DNA from: an uncultured bacterium
GTDB taxonomy: Bacteria; Bacillota; Clostridia; Oscillospirales; Oscillospiraceae
Assembly: GCA_905215475.1 (NCBI GenBank)
Contig: CAJMPW010000001.1
Coordinates: forward strand, 111,109-175,108
Direction of reading: 5' to 3'
Length of the DNA: 64,000 nt
Position 1 is the stretch's first letter, and every line of letters begins with the position of its first letter. A program made the translations under genes and the position numbers. Below, piece after piece: positions 6,476 to 44,332 of the stretch. The notes beneath the pieces were generated by a model, which had not been told where the DNA came from, ran no database searches, and worked only from the letters and a program-made list of their open reading frames with translations.

Positions 6476-6506
6476 TTGAAAACAGTGGCTTCGGAGGTGT
6501 ATCTCA

Positions 6507-6797
6507 TTGGCAGCAAAAACGAACGAATTGTGTTATAAAGGCCATCCGCTGCGCCGCAAGGATAATCTGCTCTATTACGGCAGCATGGCTGACAAGTACA
6601 TCATTATGATGCAGATTCTCGACACGAAGAAGGTCAAAGATCTCGACGTGGCGACGCGGGTCTCCGTGCAGCTCCAGCTGACGGACCCGGATCTGAAATC
6701 CCGCGACCGCGTGGTCAAAAAGACAGAAAAGGACGGGCTGTACAACGCCATGGATGTGGCGGCTGTGTGGCTGGACCGCGCGCTTGCGAATAACTAA
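6507..6797 (+). CDS. Hypothetical 96-aa protein (TTG start)
   Basis: TTG at 6507 with GGAGG 8 nt upstream. ...ELCYKGHPLRRKDNLLYYGSMADKYIIMMQILDTKKVKDLDV... No recognisable domain. Ends 16 nt before the NlpC/P60 gene. Confidence 0.5.
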   Translation: MAAKTNELCYKGHPLRRKDNLLYYGSMADKYIIMMQILDTKKVKDLDVATRVSVQLQLTDPDLKSRDRVVKKTEKDGLYNAMDVAAVWLDRALANN

Positions 6798-6812
6798 GCA
6801 AAGGATGATTCT

Positions 6813-8318
6813 ATGGCGAAACGATTTCTGAAAACAACGGTTGCCTCCGTGATCTTCGCGCTCACGCTGGCCGTTTCGGCCTCCGCGGCGACTGCCGGCG
6901 GTGCGACCACGACGACGGCCGTGAACTTCCGAAAGGGCGCCGGTACGAATTACGGCATTATCTCGACGCTCCCGGCCGGCACAAAGGTCGTGGTGTCCGA
7001 GCGGTCTAACGATGCGTGGTCCATGGTGGTCTATAACGGCACCTTCGGCTACATATCCTCCGATTACCTCAAGCGCGCCAATGACCTCAATGCCAGCTTC
7101 GGCACCGGTACGATCAACAGCAGCTACGTGCGTATGCGCTCCGGCGCGAGCACGAGCAGCTCCATTCTCGGCACCTACAATCCCGGCACCACGATGACGG
7201 TCACCGGCGTCAGCGGTGCCTGGTTTAAGGTCAGCTATAACGGCACTGCCGGCTATGTCCACTCGGATTACCTGTCCCTGTCGGGCGTGACGTCCGGCGG
7301 CAGCACGTCCGGCTCCAACGGCTCTGTCAAGGGCAGCGATGTGCGTATGCGCTCCGGCCCGGGCACGAACTATTCCATCCTCGGCACGTACCAGAACGGC
7401 ACGGCGCTGACCGTGACCGGTACGGAAAACGGCTGGACGAAGGTCACCATCGGCGGCACGAACGGCTACATCCGTTCGGACTATGTCTCCGGCGGCGCGG
7501 ACAGCAAGACCGGCTATATCAAGGGCACGGGCGTGCGTATGCGCTCCGGCGCGAGCACGACCAGCTCCATCCTCGGCGTGTATAACACCGGCACCGAGAT
7601 GACGATCACCGGCGAGAGCGGCAACTGGTACAAGGTCAGCCACAGCGGCAAGGACGGCTATGTCAGCAAGGACTATATGTCCATGACCAAGCCCGGCAGC
7701 GGCGGCGGCTCGACGAGTCAGAGCGGCTACATCAAGGGCAACGGCGTGCGTCTGCGCTCCGGCGCCGGCACGAGCTACTCCATCCTTGGCACGTATAATA
7801 ACGGCACGCCGCTGACCATCACCGGCACGAGCGGCGACTGGACGGCCGTCACCATCAACGGTGTCAAGGGCTACGTCAACAGCGCCTATGTCTCCACCAC
7901 GAAGAGCGAGGGCGGCAACGGCGGCGGCAGCACGCCGAGCGTTTCCATCGGCGAGACGATCGTCTCCACGGCCAAGCAGTACATGGGTGCGCCGTATGTC
8001 TACGGCGGCATGAGCCCGTCCGGCTTTGACTGCTCCGGCTTTGTCAACTATGTGTACAAGCTCTGCGGCTACTCCATGAGCCGTGTGGCCAGCAGCATCT
8101 ACAACAACAACGGCACCTACGTCGAGAAGGCCAACCTCCAGATCGGCGACCTGGTGTTCTTTGCGAGCAACAGCTCCAGCATCGGCCACGTCGGTATCTA
8201 CATCGGCAACGGCCAGTTCATCCACAGCAGCTCCGGCGCAGGCTGCGTCGTCATCAGCGACCTGAGCTCGAACTACTACCTGAAAAACTACGTGGGCGCA
8301 AAGCGCATCGCAGGCTAA
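6813..8318 (+). CDS. Secreted peptidoglycan endopeptidase: five bacterial SH3 (SH3b) repeats plus a C-terminal NlpC/P60 domain
   Basis: Signal peptide MAKRFLKTTVASVIFALTLAVSASA. Five roughly 70-aa repeats (VNFRKGAGTNY...Y..DYL). C-terminal YVYGG...GFDCSGFVNYVY...IGHVGIYIGNGQFIHSS (Cys/His/His). Confidence 0.85.
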   Translation: MAKRFLKTTVASVIFALTLAVSASAATAGGATTTTAVNFRKGAGTNYGIISTLPAGTKVVVSERSNDAWSMVVYNGTFGYISSDYLKRANDLNASFGTGTINSSYVRMRSGASTSSSILGTYNPGTTMTVTGVSGAWFKVSYNGTAGYVHSDYLSLSGVTSGGSTSGSNGSVKGSDVRMRSGPGTNYSILGTYQNGTALTVTGTENGWTKVTIGGTNGYIRSDYVSGGADSKTGYIKGTGVRMRSGASTTSSILGVYNTGTEMTITGESGNWYKVSHSGKDGYVSKDYMSMTKPGSGGGSTSQSGYIKGNGVRLRSGAGTSYSILGTYNNGTPLTITGTSGDWTAVTINGVKGYVNSAYVSTTKSEGGNGGGSTPSVSIGETIVSTAKQYMGAPYVYGGMSPSGFDCSGFVNYVYKLCGYSMSRVASSIYNNNGTYVEKANLQIGDLVFFASNSSSIGHVGIYIGNGQFIHSSSGAGCVVISDLSSNYYLKNYVGAKRIAG

Positions 8319-8330
8319 CAGGATTCCTTT

Positions 8331-8361
8331 GTCCCCCGGCAGCACCGGGGGACATTTTTTA
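8331..8361 (+). terminator. Rho-independent terminator
   Basis: gtcccccgg-cagcac-cgggggac + atttttta. Confidence 0.7.
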
Positions 8362-8407
8362 TCTTGCGGCAGAATGTATGGCCGTGATATATTGAGGAAA
8401 ATAATGT

Positions 8408-9172
8408 GTGTGTGGGAAAGGGCAGGTGAAGCCAATGCAGTGTACCTACTGCGGACGAGACATTCCGGACGATGCGGTCTGGTGCCCCTACTGCGGGGCG
8501 GAACAGACACCGCCGGACGAGACCACGCCGCCGGACGGCTGGCAGGACGAAAACATCCCGGTCGGCGACTGGGATGACGAGGCAGATCCGCCGTCCGACA
8601 ACACGTGGGCCGACGACCCGCCCGTGCCCGGGTGGGAGGATGATGCACCCTATGAGCCTGCGCAGGATGCGGACGCGCCGCGCAGCAAGGCGCTGCTCAT
8701 TGCGATCTTCGCCGCGCTCGGCGTGTCGCTGATCGTGCTGCTCATCGCGCTCAACGTCAAGCCCAAGCCGAAAGATCCGGTCGCCGCCGTGACGCCGGTC
8801 GTGACAGCCACGGCGCAGCCCTCCGCCGCGCCGACGCAGGCCCCGACCCCGACGCCGACGCCCACGCCGAAGCCGGCCTCCGGCAGCTATATCCTGCCGG
8901 ACAGCGCCACGCGCCGGCTCACGCAGGCAGATGTGGCAGACCTCACGTGGGAGCAGTGCTGCCTTGCGCGCAACGAGATCTACGCGCGCCACGGCCGCAT
9001 CTTCCAGACGCCGCAGATCGCGGCATATTTCGAGGCGCAGAGCTGGTATCACGGTACGGTGCCGGGTGCGTCGTTCGATAGCAATACGCTCTCGCCAATC
9101 GAGCACGCAAATATTGATTTCCTCGCCGGCTACGAAAACGCCACGTGGGGACATCCGTACATCTATTCCTGA
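8408..9172 (+). CDS. Zinc-ribbon / proline-acidic linker / single-TM / YARHG-domain membrane protein
   Basis: CTYCGRDIPDDAVWCPYCG zinc ribbon; TM LLIAIFAALGVSLIVLLIAL; Pro/Thr-rich linker; C-terminal ...CCLARNEIYARHGRIF... (YARHG motif). Alternative start at the ATG at 8435. Confidence 0.7.
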   Translation: MCGKGQVKPMQCTYCGRDIPDDAVWCPYCGAEQTPPDETTPPDGWQDENIPVGDWDDEADPPSDNTWADDPPVPGWEDDAPYEPAQDADAPRSKALLIAIFAALGVSLIVLLIALNVKPKPKDPVAAVTPVVTATAQPSAAPTQAPTPTPTPTPKPASGSYILPDSATRRLTQADVADLTWEQCCLARNEIYARHGRIFQTPQIAAYFEAQSWYHGTVPGASFDSNTLSPIEHANIDFLAGYENATWGHPYIYS

Positions 9173-19175: not shown

Positions 19176-20990
19176 ATGGCGGGACACAGACACGGACCGG
19201 GCCGCATCCCGGAAAAACCGAAAAATTTCAAGGGCACGCTCCGAAAGCTCCTGCACTGCCTCGGGGAGCATCGCTTCGCGCTGGCGCTGGTGCTCGTGCT
19301 CGCGCTGGCGAGCACGGCGTTCGGCATCGTCGGACCGAAGATCCTCTCGACGGCGACGACGGAGCTGGCCACCGGTCTCGGGCGCAAGCTCTCGGGGCTC
19401 GGCGGCATCGACTTCGGCAAGATCGGAAAGATCCTGCTGACGGTGCTCGCGCTCTACCTTGTCAGCGCCGCGTGCAGCTTCTTCCAGTCGTGGATCCTTG
19501 CGGGCGTCACGCAGAAGCTCGCCTACCGTCTGCGCGGGGAGATCAGCGCGAAGATCCACCGGATGCCCATGCGCTACTTTGAGCGCGGCACCGTCGGCGA
19601 CGTGCTCTCGCGCATCACGAACGATGTGGACACCATGTCCTCCGGCATGGCGCAGTCGGTCACGCAGCTGGTCACGAACGTCACGCTGCTCATCGGCGTG
19701 CTGGTTATGATGCTGCGCATCAGCTGGCTCATGACGCTCATCGCGCTCATCGTCCTGCCGGTCACGGGCGTGCTCACGAGCCGCATCGTCAAGCGCAGCC
19801 AGCGCTATTTCGTCGCGCAGCAGAAAAATCTCGGCGCGATCAACGGCAAGGTCGAGGAGACGTATGCCGGGCACAGCGTCGTGTGCGCGTTCAACCGCGA
19901 GGCGGCGACGCAAAAGGAGTTTGACGCCATCAACGCGCGGCTCTACCGCTCGGCGTGGAAGAGTCAGTTCTTGTCCGGGCTCATGATGCCGGTGACGACG
20001 TTTGTCAGCAAGCTCGGCTACGTATGCGTGGTCGTGCTCGGCGGGTCGCTCGCCGCGCACGGCACGATCACGATCGGCGACATTCAGGCGTTCATCAGCT
20101 ATATGGCAAGCTTTACGCAGCCGATCACGCAGCTGGCCCAGATCAGCACGCAGCTGCAGACCATGGCGGCCGCGGCCGAGCGCGTGTTCGACTTCCTTGC
20201 CGAGGCGGAGGAGCCCGCCGATCCCGCGCTGCCCGCCCCGGCGGAGCATATCCGCGGCGACGTGTCGTTCCGCCACGTGCGCTTCGGCTATGATCCCGAG
20301 CAGCCGGTCATCCGCGACTGGAGCTGCGACGTGCCCGCCGGCAGAACGGTCGCCATCGTCGGCCCGACCGGCGCCGGCAAGACCACGATGGTCAAGCTGC
20401 TCATGCGCTTTTACGATGTGGATGCCGGCGCGATCCTCGTCGATGGGCGCGACGTGCGCGATTATGCGCGCGGCGACCTGCGCCGCGCCTTCGGCATGGT
20501 GCTGCAGGACACGTGGCTGTTTAAGGGCACGATCCTGGAAAACATCCGCTACGGCCGCCCGGACGCGACCGATGCTGAGGTCATCGCGGCGGCCAAGGCC
20601 GCGCGCGCTGATGCCTTCATCCGCACGCTGCCCGGCGGCTATCAGATGGAGCTCAACGAGGACGCGACGAACGTCTCGCAGGGACAAAAGCAGCTGCTGA
20701 CCATTGCGCGCGCCGTGCTGGCGAACGCCCCCATCCTCATCCTCGACGAGGCGACGAGCTCGGTCGACACCCGCACCGAGCAGCTCATTCAGGAGGCGAT
20801 GGATCACCTCATGCGCGGGCGCACGAGCTTTGTCATCGCGCACCGCCTGAGCACCATCCGCAATGCCGACTGCATTCTGGTCATGCGCGGCGGCAGCATC
20901 GTCGAGCAGGGCACGCACGCGGAGCTGCTCGCGCGCGGCGGGGTTTACGCGGCGCTCTACAACAGTCAGTTTGAGGACGTGGTCGCATAA
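19176..20990 (+). CDS. ABC exporter subunit (TMD-NBD fusion), partner of the preceding gene (heterodimeric exporter)
   Basis: Walker A GPTGAGKTT, signature VSQGQKQLLTIARA, Walker B ILILDEATSSVD. Confidence 0.9.
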   Translation: MAGHRHGPGRIPEKPKNFKGTLRKLLHCLGEHRFALALVLVLALASTAFGIVGPKILSTATTELATGLGRKLSGLGGIDFGKIGKILLTVLALYLVSAACSFFQSWILAGVTQKLAYRLRGEISAKIHRMPMRYFERGTVGDVLSRITNDVDTMSSGMAQSVTQLVTNVTLLIGVLVMMLRISWLMTLIALIVLPVTGVLTSRIVKRSQRYFVAQQKNLGAINGKVEETYAGHSVVCAFNREAATQKEFDAINARLYRSAWKSQFLSGLMMPVTTFVSKLGYVCVVVLGGSLAAHGTITIGDIQAFISYMASFTQPITQLAQISTQLQTMAAAAERVFDFLAEAEEPADPALPAPAEHIRGDVSFRHVRFGYDPEQPVIRDWSCDVPAGRTVAIVGPTGAGKTTMVKLLMRFYDVDAGAILVDGRDVRDYARGDLRRAFGMVLQDTWLFKGTILENIRYGRPDATDAEVIAAAKAARADAFIRTLPGGYQMELNEDATNVSQGQKQLLTIARAVLANAPILILDEATSSVDTRTEQLIQEAMDHLMRGRTSFVIAHRLSTIRNADCILVMRGGSIVEQGTHAELLARGGVYAALYNSQFEDVVA

Positions 20991-20994
20991 GGTG

Positions 20995-21360
20995 AGACCG
21001 CAAAACCGATGTTATGACAACCAAAACTGTGCAGAAGCACCTGCTCCTGCACGGTTTTCTTTATTGCACCTGTAAATTATGTAAACAAAAACCGTGGAAA
21101 ACTGTGTTATGGTAACTACTTTATGGTAACAGAACGTGCGTAAAAGCACTTGAAACACAAGCAAAAGCTATTCAGAACTATGCGCTTATGTAAACCGAAT
21201 TATGTGAATGACAGCGGAATTCACGTTTTCACATGATTGTGATATTATGAAAACTATATTATGACAACCGACACATGAGAAAAACGATTGCTGTTTCAGA
21301 AAAAGCAAGAATCAGCATACGAATTATGTCAATGCAGTTATGTGAACAAAATGCGCAAAA
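20995..21360. repeat. AT-rich intergenic island with ten direct copies of a TTATGNNAAC motif (iteron-like array)
   Basis: TTATG occurrences at about 21012, 21077, 21107, 21121, 21186, 21200, 21245, 21259, 21325 and 21338, each followed by NNAA(C/T). Four tandem pairs 13-14 bp apart. Base composition is conspicuously AT-rich against the high-GC flanks. Confidence 0.6.
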
Positions 21361-21361
21361 G

Positions 21362-21395
21362 AAAGCCCCGCGCGATCGATTCGCGCGGGGCTGAA
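21362..21395 (-). terminator. Rho-independent terminator of pyk (10-bp GC stem, minus-strand U-tract)
   Basis: gccccgcgcg-atcgatt-cgcgcggggc; on the minus strand followed by uuucuuuugcgcauuuu. Confidence 0.8.
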
Positions 21396-21469
21396 GATGT
21401 TTGCTCGTTTGTGGGACTGCGTCTGCGGGTCATGCGCCGGGGTGCGCGCTGACAGGCGCGCCGGCGGCC

Positions 21470-22882
21470 TTATGCGTACTCGACCTTGATGGTGTTCGTG
21501 TTGCCGCTGCGTCCGTTGATGATGCCGCCGGTGATGATGACCTTGTCGCCCTTTTCGAGCGGCATGACGGCACGGCTGACCTGCAGCGCGTGGTAAAACA
21601 GCACGTCGGTGCTCTCGTACACCTCGCTCATGACGGGCGTGATGCCCCACGAGAGGGCGAGCTTGCGGTAGGCGCGCTCGTTCGTGGTCAGACCGATGAT
21701 GTCCGTCGGGCCGCGGAAGCGCGAGATCAGCCGCGCGGTGCGCCCCGTGATGGAACAGACGGTGATGACCTTCGCGCCGATGTCGATGGCCATGCCGCAG
21801 GTGGCGTGGCTGATGGCGTCGAGCGTGTCGTGGATCTCAAACTGCGTCTTGGGGAAACGCTTGGCGTAGTTGATGTGCGACTCGGTGTATTCGGCGATGC
21901 GCGCCATGGCGCTCAGCGCCTCGACAGGGTGTTCGCCGGCCGCCGTCTCGCCGGAGAGCATGATGGCGCTCGTGCCGTCATAGACGGCGTTGGCCACGTC
22001 CGCGATCTCGGCACGGGTGGGGCGGATGTTGTGCGTCATGCTCTCGAGCATCTCGGTCGCGGTGATGACGCGCTTGCCGAGCAGACGGCACTTGCCGATG
22101 AGCTCCTTCTGGATGCTCGGCAGCTCCTCATACGGCACCTCGACGCCCATGTCGCCGCGGGCGATCATGATGCCGGTGCACTCGGTGAAGATCTCCTCGA
22201 TGTTGTCGATGCCGGGCTGGTTCTCGATCTTGGCGATGACGGTGATGTCCTCGCCGCCGTTGGCGCGCAGGAAGGTGTTGAGGTCGACCAGGTCCTGCTT
22301 GCGCGACACGAAGGACGCGGCCACGAAGTCAACGTCGTTCTCGATGCCGAAGAGCAGGTCGCTCTTGTCCTGCTCGCTCAGGAAGTCCTGCTTGAGCACC
22401 TTGTTCGGGAAGCTCATGCTCTTGCGGTCGGACAGCACGCCGCCGGCGGTGACGCGGCAGATGACATCGGTGTCGGTCGTGTCGGTGACGGTCAGGGCGA
22501 TGAGTCCATCGTTGACGAGCACGGTGTCGCCCGGCTCAAGATCCTTGGCGAGACCGGGGTAGCTCACGGATACGCGCTCATTGCTGCCGACGACCGGCTG
22601 GGTCGTGAAGGTGAAGGTGTCGCCGGTGTCCAGCGTGATCTTGCCGCCTTCGAATGTGCCGATGCGGTACTCGGGCCCTTTCGTGTCGAGCATGATGGCG
22701 ATGGGCAGATTGAGCTCGGCGCGCAGCTTTTTGATGAGGTCGATGCGGCGCTGGTGCTCGTCGTGTGTGCCGTGGGAAAAGTTCAGGCGCGCGACGTTCA
22801 TGCCCGCGAGCATCATGGCGCGCAGGGTCGGCTCGTTGTCGCAGGCGGGGCCGATGGTGCAGACGATTTTCGTTTTTCTCAT
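21470..22882 (-). CDS. pyk: Pyruvate kinase
   Basis: MRKTKIVCTIGPA...MLDTKGPEYRIG...MIARGDMGVEVP...; 470 aa, no PEP-utilizer extension. Confidence 0.95.
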   Translation of the reverse strand: MRKTKIVCTIGPACDNEPTLRAMMLAGMNVARLNFSHGTHDEHQRRIDLIKKLRAELNLPIAIMLDTKGPEYRIGTFEGGKITLDTGDTFTFTTQPVVGSNERVSVSYPGLAKDLEPGDTVLVNDGLIALTVTDTTDTDVICRVTAGGVLSDRKSMSFPNKVLKQDFLSEQDKSDLLFGIENDVDFVAASFVSRKQDLVDLNTFLRANGGEDITVIAKIENQPGIDNIEEIFTECTGIMIARGDMGVEVPYEELPSIQKELIGKCRLLGKRVITATEMLESMTHNIRPTRAEIADVANAVYDGTSAIMLSGETAAGEHPVEALSAMARIAEYTESHINYAKRFPKTQFEIHDTLDAISHATCGMAIDIGAKVITVCSITGRTARLISRFRGPTDIIGLTTNERAYRKLALSWGITPVMSEVYESTDVLFYHALQVSRAVMPLEKGDKVIITGGIINGRSGNTNTIKVEYA

Positions 22883-43489: not shown

Positions 43490-44332
43490 ATGAGCGACCA
43501 TCACAACGAAAACCCTGAAAATTGCACCCACGACTGCTCGAACTGCAGCGAAAACTGCGAGCACGCGACCGAGTCTCTGCAGCAGGCGCTGCGTCCGGGC
43601 GCCCGTGTTGACAAGGTCATCGCGGTCGTCTCCGGCAAGGGCGGCGTCGGCAAGAGCCTCGTGACGAGCCTGCTCGCCTGCGAGATGCAGCGCCGCGGCC
43701 ATCAGGCAGCCGTGCTCGATGCCGACATCACCGGCCCATCGATCCCGCAGGCGTTCGGCGTCCACGGCGGCGCCATGGGCGGCGAGGATTTTCTGTATCC
43801 CAACCGCACCCGCACCGGCATCGAGATCATGTCCATCAATCTCCTGCTCCCGAACGAGACCGACCCCGTCGTCTGGCGTGGTCCGGTCATCGCCGGCGCT
43901 GTGACCCAGTTCTGGACCGATGTCCAGTGGGAGAACGTGAACTATATGTTCGTCGATATGCCTCCCGGAACGGGCGACGTGCCGCTGACGGTGTTCCAGT
44001 CCCTGCCCGTGGCGGGCGTGGTCGTCGTCACGTCTCCGCAGGAGCTCGTCGGCATGATCGTCGACAAGGCCGTCAACATGGCCGACATGATGCACGTGCC
44101 CGTGCTCGGCATCGTTGAGAACATGGCCTACTACACCTGCCCGGACTGCGGCAAGCAGCACGCCATCTTCGGCGAGAGCCACATCGAGGCCATTGCCGCC
44201 AAGCATGGCATCCCGCACACGGCCAAGCTGCCCATCGACCCCGCCATCGCGGCGGCGTGCGATGCCGGCCGCATCGAGGACGTGCAGGGCGACTGGCTCG
44301 GCGCGCTGGCCGATGCCATCGAGGGCAAGTAA
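43490..44332 (+). CDS. apbC: Mrp/NBP35-family Fe-S cluster carrier ATPase (ApbC)
   Basis: Cys-rich N-terminus (CTHDCSNCSENCEH), deviant Walker A SGKGGVGKS, CPDCG near the C-terminus. Confidence 0.85.
   Translation: MSDHHNENPENCTHDCSNCSENCEHATESLQQALRPGARVDKVIAVVSGKGGVGKSLVTSLLACEMQRRGHQAAVLDADITGPSIPQAFGVHGGAMGGEDFLYPNRTRTGIEIMSINLLLPNETDPVVWRGPVIAGAVTQFWTDVQWENVNYMFVDMPPGTGDVPLTVFQSLPVAGVVVVTSPQELVGMIVDKAVNMADMMHVPVLGIVENMAYYTCPDCGKQHAIFGESHIEAIAAKHGIPHTAKLPIDPAIAAACDAGRIEDVQGDWLGALADAIEGK

Follow-up and report, generated by a model that had tools for sequence, protein, structure and literature searches.

The 64-kb stretch of DNA analysed here (hereafter, the window) carries an AT-rich intergenic island between the convergent 3' ends of an ABC exporter gene and pyk, and within this island ten direct copies of the 10-bp motif TTATGNNAAY form an ordered array, which is the subject of this work. 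The gap between the two genes measures 479 bp and has a G+C content of 0.35–0.40 compared to ~0.65 in the flanks; no other low-G+C segment of the window is as large or as AT-rich. SseB-like and prs genes also belong to the neighbourhood. No gene was called in the island on the source contig. Open reading frames (ORFs) of 30–50 aa were present in single species, none of them shared in position or sequence, and coding by a small ORF was rejected. An earlier note on this DNA, made from the sequence alone, had described the same convergent gene ends, an AT-rich gap of ~480 bp, and the lack of a credible ORF, all of which agrees with these results. The features of the locus are listed below; dif denotes the recombination site of XerC and XerD.

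19176–20990, plus strand: ABC exporter gene, the second of two (Pfam: ABC_membrane and ABC_tran).
20991–21469, no strand: the AT-rich intergenic island.
21012–21021, plus strand: site 1, TTATGACAAC, single, downstream of the ABC stop codon and ahead of the ABC terminator hairpin.
21023–21058, no strand: terminator hairpin of the ABC exporter operon (inverted repeat I2, 88% complementary), flanked on either side by T-runs.
21077–21086, plus strand: site 2, TTATGTAAAC, single, the same as bases 1–10 of the Staphylococcus aureus dif XerD arm.
21107–21130, plus strand: pair 1, sites 3 and 4, TTATGGTAAC tact TTATGGTAAC, 14 bp start to start.
21186–21209, plus strand: pair 2, sites 5 and 6, TTATGTAAAC cgaa TTATGTGAAT, the best-conserved pair (as a 24-mer, TTATGTAAACCGAATTATGTGAAT).
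21245–21268, plus strand: pair 3, sites 7 and 8, TTATGAAAAC tata TTATGACAAC.
21324–21347, plus strand: pair 4, sites 9 and 10, TTATGTCAAT gcag TTATGTGAAC.
21364–21392, minus strand: intrinsic terminator of pyk, a 12-bp G+C-rich stem followed by TTTCTTTTG.
21470–22882, minus strand: pyk, pyruvate kinase (Pfam).

An exact search for TTATGNNAAY on both strands of the window yielded ten matches between 21012 and 21347, all on the plus strand, with starts at 21012, 21077, 21107, 21121, 21186, 21200, 21245, 21259, 21324, and 21338. The ten direct repeats reported in the earlier note were all recovered as exact matches on one strand, and nine of its start positions were correct, whereas the ninth copy starts at 21324 and not at 21325. 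Its four tandem pairs (sites 3/4, 5/6, 7/8, and 9/10) were likewise recovered, but their spacing, given as 13–14 bp, is exactly 14 bp from start to start in each of them. The complete spacing series reads 65, 30, 14, 65, 14, 45, 14, 65, and 14 bp, and the distances from pair to pair are 79, 59, and 79 bp. Outside the island, no further copy was found in the window, the other ~4 kb of relatively AT-rich DNA included.

Shuffling of the whole window gave 0.55 expected matches with a maximum of 2, and shuffles keeping the 37% G+C of the island gave 0.025–0.04 expected matches with a maximum of 2 in 20,000. The probability that the array is a product of chance, or a functionless low-complexity satellite of AT-rich DNA, is consequently rated as close to nil: island and motif are both AT-rich, but ten copies stand against 0.03 expected at the local composition, the spacers are not repeated, and the sites are conserved where the spacers diverge (see below). 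Tandem Repeats Finder reported only 1.9 copies at 21242–21268 (sites 7–8), by which a satellite was rejected, and the spacers, which evolve freely, do not resemble one another. The array is real and non-random, and a chance origin is excluded.

Comparison loci and contigs from the collection scans are denoted by L-numbers. The closest relatives by pyk were metagenome-assembled genomes of uncultured Oscillospiraceae (Clostridia) with ~63–65% G+C, and inspection of the same gap in relatives showed the array at the same place, with fixed order and spacing, in five other species whose pyk is 93–96% identical. Relatives with pyk at 80–81% identity have different genes after pyk and no array there. 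The pattern scan of metagenomes returned at least 120 matches, most of them the pyk-adjacent locus, and the same spacing series was found, within 1–2 bp, in more than 70 gut-metagenome contigs among the matches listed. This distribution, with one place and one site order in six species, speaks against the suggestion of the earlier note that the island is a remnant of horizontally acquired DNA, as does a blastn search of the island against phage and plasmid collections, which gave no match.

Across the six species, TTATG..AA[C/T] is kept in 58/58 sites, and in the alignment of relatives the motif columns are invariant while the intervening DNA is barely alignable. Identity figures were calculated from 24 non-redundant arrays that are less than 93% identical to one another. 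Mean pairwise identity was 96.7% for the 80 specified columns (8 per site), 78% for the 20 variable NN columns, and 58.5% for the 237 spacer columns, compared to 83% for the adjacent coding sequence. Site 5 is identical in all 24 arrays, site 2 is TTATGTAAAC in 22, and site 1 is TTATGACAAC in 20 of them. In alignment A1, pair 2 varies at only three columns: two belong to the spacer of 4 bases, and the third is one of the two free motif positions in site 6. Because the motif columns are conserved while the spacers have diverged, the ten sites and their spacing are under strong purifying selection and constitute a textbook phylogenetic footprint. Since its copies stayed intact while the DNA between them decayed, the array very probably serves as a chromosomal docking platform for a protein, and the general proposal of an ordered array of protein-binding sites made in the earlier note is strongly backed by this footprint. 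Two further short elements lie within the spacers:

21150–21152, plus strand: conserved TTG, nearly invariant in both alignments; it lies in one of the two internal 65-bp spacers, 29 bp downstream of the site 4 start.
21288–21290, plus strand: second conserved TTG, likewise nearly invariant; it lies in the other internal 65-bp spacer, 29 bp downstream of the site 8 start.

These TTGs may represent a second, weaker recognition element. The surroundings of both follow the loose form AAAA.C..TTG.

The array has also been affected by rearrangements. In one sub-lineage, comprising L003, L197, and others, an inversion breakpoint lies between sites 1 and 2 and site 1 is lost; here pyk keeps the array, and the ABC genes are found 7 kb away in opposite orientation. 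Adjacency to pyk was kept through the rearrangement (L197, L115, L118). L117 (8238–8552) retains only sites 1–6, on the side of the ABC gene. Two rearrangements thus break at or inside the array (L197:1355-10293; L117:8238-8552), which may be coincidence, or the array may be recombinogenic.

Site 1 is located between the ABC stop codon and the hairpin at 21023–21058 and hence inside the ABC 3' untranslated region (UTR), and sites 2–10 are located between this hairpin and the pyk terminator. The hairpin is followed on the plus strand by the tail TTTTCTTTATT and would terminate transcription on the minus strand too, which is scored by the terminator scan. Since the array lies between convergent 3' ends and two terminators, an operator array of a local transcription factor was rejected. 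Both flanking genes end in ...GCATAA (20982–20990 and 21470–21478), so that the island is framed by a perfect 9-bp inverted repeat, CGCATAAGG / CCTTATGCG. As terminal inverted repeats of an inserted element the two ends were dismissed, both being merely Ala-stop gene ends: the choice between GCA and GCG at the two ends showed no covariation in the 49 loci with both ends readable, and pyk ends identically in a relative without the island.

An action at the RNA level was considered in two forms, a transcript whose ten UUAUGNNAAC motifs sponge an RNA-binding protein and a small RNA (sRNA) of ~150 nt, the latter already suggested in the earlier note with a promoter TTCACG-17-TATTAT. All sites lie on the strand of the upstream gene, in the window as well as in L092, L152, and L202 (described below), site 1 is inside the ABC 3' UTR, and a promoter-like match was obtained by scanning at 21220–21248. 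This match, however, is conserved only where it overlaps site 7, for which reason a conserved promoter was rejected, and sites 2–10 lie downstream of a good terminator. Searches of the island against Rfam at permissive thresholds gave only matches far below the gathering scores, and the RNAalifold consensus fold of 11 diverse arrays reached −4.6 kcal/mol on the plus and −0.6 kcal/mol on the minus strand over ~300 nt, by which a structured or known RNA was ruled out. The inverted versions of the motif with 6- and 7-bp spacers found elsewhere point to recognition of double-stranded DNA. An RNA-level function is therefore regarded as very improbable, and the sRNA of the earlier note was not upheld.

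Published dif patterns were used to compare the motif with Xer binding sites. The XerD arm is the best-conserved part of dif, with its inner bases the most conserved, and consists of TTATG, the variable positions 23 and 24, and a highly conserved A25; arms in the dif tables include TTATGGTAACT, TTATGTAAACT/C, TTATGTAAACC, TTATGAAAACG, and TTATGTTAACT (PMC2731167). The Gram-positive reference dif is that of S. aureus, ACTTCCTATAATATATATTATGTAAACT, with the right end ...TATATATTATGTAAACT and the XerD arm TTATGTAAACT (PMC11040001). The array motif has the same fixed and the same two free positions as the XerD arm in 10/10 sites, and sites 2 and 5 match the S. aureus arm over its first 10 bases, so that the resemblance to the XerD-binding arm noticed earlier is borne out. 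Read outward, the Gram-positive XerC arm, TTATAGGAAGT, departs from the array motif at positions 5 and 10, where the array has strictly G and C/T, respectively; the G at position 5 and the AA at positions 8–9 fit the XerD arm and not the Gram-positive XerC arm. For this reason, the array sites are, by sequence, of the XerD type and not of the XerC type.

A dif site comprises 28 bp, with an 11-bp XerC arm, a 6-bp centre, and an inverted 11-bp XerD arm. The array shares with dif the 10-bp unit (TTATG, two free bases, AA(C/T)) and a low-G+C intergenic setting, as is reported for dif, but has no XerC arm, no centre, and no inverted partner. No inverted partner was found at 5–9 bp from any array site in the window, no left (XerC) arm of the ATAA/GAA type is conserved between species, and the B. 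subtilis dif sequence had no match in the window with up to 8 mismatches. As no site has a conserved inverted partner, there is no dif at this locus, and the failure to assemble a complete dif in the earlier note was correct. Moreover, dif is present in a single copy at the skew switch of the terminus, whereas the array has ten copies and no skew switch, and recombination at the array sites is not expected.

The same motif was found at other, non-orthologous chromosomal loci of bacteria with ~45% G+C. Eleven sites with alternating 14/15-bp spacing fill the 225-bp gap between aroB and aroC in an aromatic amino-acid operon (L092:6500-6688), and an array of three sites is present on the opposite strand 2 kb away (L092:4257-4296). 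The latter lies inside the linker of an aroE-aroK fusion ORF, and the two groups face each other. L202 and L130 carry four 14-bp pairs, i.e., eight direct sites, between azlD and a trigger-factor-like PPIase gene (L202:5065-5194). The syntenic gap in L152 contains, in place of this 8-site array, a perfect palindrome, GTTAACATAA-AATAAT-TTATGTTAAC (10 bp + 6 bp + 10 bp; L152:6631-6656). This dif-like palindrome is not a classical terminus dif, because the GC skew keeps its sign there. L152 also has a 5-site array between purO and purH. Two further sites lie 77 bp apart in L152 and 78 bp apart in the L202 counterpart, with a diverged spacer. This 77–78-bp pair is situated just upstream of NrdR-box-like palindromes (ACAATATATTGTG) fronting nrdD, the gene for the anaerobic ribonucleotide reductase (L152:4080-4350; L202:7440-7700). 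Arrays in gaps between unrelated housekeeping genes, such as aroB|aroC and purO|purH, do not look like a promoter-bound regulon and fit a general chromosomal factor. Pattern matches from the metagenome and viral scans that turned out to be exact 14-bp satellites (L082, L084, L088, L098, L103, L183, and others) were discarded, as were matches within protein-coding MORN-like repeats (...YENGQLK..., 72-bp units; L140, L141, L143, L171, L190).

Degenerate TTATGT[AC]AAC arrays in 14-bp pairs were furthermore detected in an uncultured family of gut phage-like contigs with 38–50% G+C (L085, L102, L109, L111, L113, L122, L150, L161, L165, L173, L201, L210), for example at L085:9300-9820 and L210:8900-9330. 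Some of the pairs share the CGAA spacer of window sites 5–6, and the family has one inverted pair with a 7-bp spacer, GTTTACATAA-CACCGCG-TTATGTMAAC. The scan of the viral collection gave nine matches with the real motif, three of which were degenerate arrays. As a control, three permuted motifs gave 5–8 matches each in the same collection, none of them degenerate arrays; all were exact satellites or three-site chance matches. The phage arrays are part of a conserved module flanked by paralogous proteins of ~112–120 aa. One 119-aa family has more than 1,100 members and no Pfam domain, and its AlphaFold model (predicted local distance difference test score 90.5) consists of a long helix followed by a PadR/MarR-like winged helix with a highly conserved putative recognition helix; a 113-aa paralog has a weak Pfam match to MarR_2. 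The winged-helix protein had no match in INPHARED. Strong TTGACA/TATAAT promoters are present downstream of the array in L210. In another viral contig, at least eight degenerate copies of the motif, some of them inverted, are located directly upstream of a terminase small-subunit gene (L083:4042-4260) and near the terminase large subunit, the usual position of pac/cos recognition sites.

These phage-like contigs bear on two alternative explanations. According to one, the island represents domesticated or decoy phage or plasmid iterons or operators, which titrate a phage initiator or repressor, provide an incompatibility-type defence, or are the fossil of an old integration. The phage arrays have the identical pair spacing and in part the CGAA spacer, degenerate arrays were never obtained with the permuted motifs in viral contigs, and two rearrangement breakpoints touch the array. 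Conversely, the fixed position and site order across species with substitution-saturated spacers argue that the array has long served the host; neither a phage gene nor an integrase or tRNA was found nearby; the phage contigs, at 38–50% G+C against 63–65% in the host, probably infect other hosts; and the island itself had no match in the phage or plasmid collections. A decoy or fossil is thus considered decidedly improbable. A mobile element was rejected too, given that no integrase, tRNA, rep gene, or par gene was found nearby and that the collections gave no match. An iteron-type origin was rejected as well, since no rep gene is adjacent, no DnaA-box cluster was found in the window, and the chromosomal position is fixed. 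The same applies to a centromere-like parC/parS site: parS with up to 2 mismatches was not found in the window, and no partition NTPase or adaptor genes are adjacent. The only ParA-family match (43490–44332) is 22 kb away and belongs to an NUBPL/Mrp-type Fe-S P-loop NTPase.

The other explanation holds that the array resembles the XerD arm by coincidence and is bound by a different sequence-specific protein, serving as a platform with an architectural, anchoring, or silencing function; candidates for this protein are a phage-type winged-helix protein, a nucleoid-associated protein, or a centromere-type adaptor. It draws on the phage-like contigs, where the motif in 14-bp pairs stands beside the ~112–120-aa paralogous proteins and where the 119-aa family is confidently predicted to adopt the PadR/MarR-like fold with its putative recognition helix. 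The arrays occupy non-promoter gaps, and in the window, L092, L152, and L202 the motif points the same way as the genes. The homologues of the phage proteins, however, are not encoded in the window or in the fetched chromosomal loci, there is no par or rep gene near the array, the match to the XerD arm extends over all specified and both free positions, and the inverted versions with 6- and 7-bp spacers are typical recombinase core sites. Binding by such a protein is a serious possibility, although rather an unlikely one.

The island is best explained as ten binding sites, arrayed on the chromosome, for a single sequence-specific protein, and this putative binder is, from the form of its sites, most likely an Xer-family tyrosine recombinase of the XerD type. 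Four arguments favour an Xer protein: the motif equals the XerD arm at every informative position, the inverted motif pairs with 6- and 7-bp spacers at other loci have the core-site geometry of tyrosine recombinases, the 14-bp period would correspond to the length of one monomer at dif, and a non-recombinational role of XerD at dif-like sites is already established. We infer from this the nature of the binder (XerD or a relative), its binding without recombination, and an effect on SMC or other motors. The reading that an Xer-type recombinase binds the array without recombining, in the manner of the XerD-specific sites (XDS) of B. subtilis, and acts as a roadblock to SMC or another translocase is put forward tentatively, with a likelihood somewhat short of an even chance.

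The proposed mechanism would be as follows. Each 10-bp site would act as a recombinase half-site, i.e., an arm without a partner arm, and as no partner arm is present in the array, nothing could be cut or exchanged. Since all half-sites are in direct orientation and no synapse-competent core exists, binding would take place without recombination. As many as ten monomers would bind in a head-to-tail row that includes four adjacent pairs at 14 bp, 14 bp being the sum of one 11-bp arm and half of the 6-bp central region and hence the length occupied by one monomer at dif. This would result in a polar nucleoprotein block of ~340 bp between the two terminators. The block would stop or unload a DNA translocase, Smc-ScpAB or possibly FtsK/SpoIIIE, analogous to XDS of B. 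subtilis, and would thereby mark a boundary in the organisation of the chromosome.

Several points weigh against this mechanism. The assignment to XerD is drawn from motif resemblance and site geometry. No xer gene was found in the window or the fetched loci by tblastn with an approximate E. coli XerD query; xer genes are normally unlinked to their sites, which makes the absence of a nearby gene uninformative. To our knowledge, tandem head-to-tail XerD half-sites at 14 bp have not been reported. The phage arrays appear to have their own plausible binder, the predicted PadR/MarR-like winged-helix protein, so a protein other than XerD may recognise the same motif. Furthermore, a position of the array near the terminus is not supported. 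By rough gene calls from codon-position G+C, genes are mostly on the plus strand on both sides of the array (10 vs 5 on the left, 24 vs 8 on the right), no replication-linked GC skew was detected in the window (gene-strand regression, replication term ~0), and the arrays of L152, L092, and L202 lie in DNA of single-sign GC skew. The main arrays of these three loci have the same orientation as the genes and the G-rich strand, and the window array would also follow the G-rich strand if the gene-strand majority marks the leading strand. The rsmG gene (836–1729) was discounted as a marker of oriC, as it is not adjacent to mnmG or parAB. Elsewhere in the window, a 714-aa ORF with good coding statistics (6504–8648, minus strand) had no Pfam domain at E<1e-5.

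Among known systems, XDS are the closest to the array. In work of Karaboja et al. (2021, Mol Cell), XDS, the XerD-specific sites of B. subtilis, are said to unload Smc-ScpAB. According to three further sources, XerD on the dif-like XDS unloads Smc-ScpAB in B. subtilis, an artificial XDS array halts SMC and gives rise to a boundary, and several XDS are thought to be needed together for SMC unloading (PMC11840125, PMC10945525, PMC11894783). The array and XDS are both dif-related, with the XerD recognition element present and without a substrate for XerC/XerD recombination. Multiple XDS act together, and the window array would be the natural counterpart of the engineered XDS array. The two differ in that XDS are described as dispersed in the terminus region, whereas the window array packs ten direct half-sites into 340 bp with fixed 14-bp pairs and has no feature that would place it at the terminus.

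Accessory sites of other tyrosine recombinases offer a second comparison. Flp binds a third 13-bp FRT element, a direct repeat 14 bp from its neighbour, and the integron site attI carries the accessory direct repeats DR1 and DR2. These accessory sites resemble the array in that extra core-type sites are adjacent in direct orientation, in FRT also at 14 bp, but they flank a functional inverted core, which the window array lacks; the phage arrays and L152, unlike the window array, do have an inverted core. A precedent for recombinase-type recognition that serves DNA binding alone, at a short, repeated intergenic element, is MrpR of phage SPbeta, which has a tyrosine-recombinase fold, has lost catalysis, and binds SPBRE (PMC10516654). 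SPBRE differs from the array in being another motif of 15 bp that controls lysogeny and is described from various prophage intergenic regions and not as a compact array (PMC10516654). Iterons and parC/parS arrays share with the window array the ordered short direct repeats, the AT-rich non-coding setting, and the divergent spacers. The window array, however, has no rep or par gene and no DnaA-box cluster, is built of a 10-bp unit with a 14-bp period in contrast to the 17–22-bp units of iterons, and is chromosomal and vertically inherited between housekeeping genes. No description of natural tandem arrays of XerD-type half-sites was found in the literature searched, which was itself incomplete. 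The array is placed as an Xer/dif-related cis-element closest to XDS, or, should its binder not be an Xer protein, as part of a new recognition system.

SMC unloading by XerD is a known function in B. subtilis, and evidence from S. aureus supports it. A natural array of ten selected XerD-type half-sites would be a ready-made test object for the generality of this role and for the form of its sites elsewhere. Because the S. aureus dif XerD arm begins with the 10 bases of sites 2 and 5, the island could be transplanted to the B. subtilis chromosome. More widely, though this is doubtful, the gut Clostridia may possess an unrecognised class of chromosomal cis-elements, compact polar arrays of XerD half-sites made up of 14-bp tandem pairs, on which XerD or a catalytically idle Xer relative would form a roadblock that sets where motors of the Smc-ScpAB/FtsK type stop, away from dif and the immediate terminus; the phage family would copy these arrays in order to manipulate such machinery of the host or to recruit its recombinase. 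Should another protein than XerD be the binder, the array would still define a new DNA-protein recognition system, with a precisely mapped binding unit of TTATGNNAAC, four free bases, and TTATGNNAAC, common to several uncultured gut Clostridia and one of their phage families.

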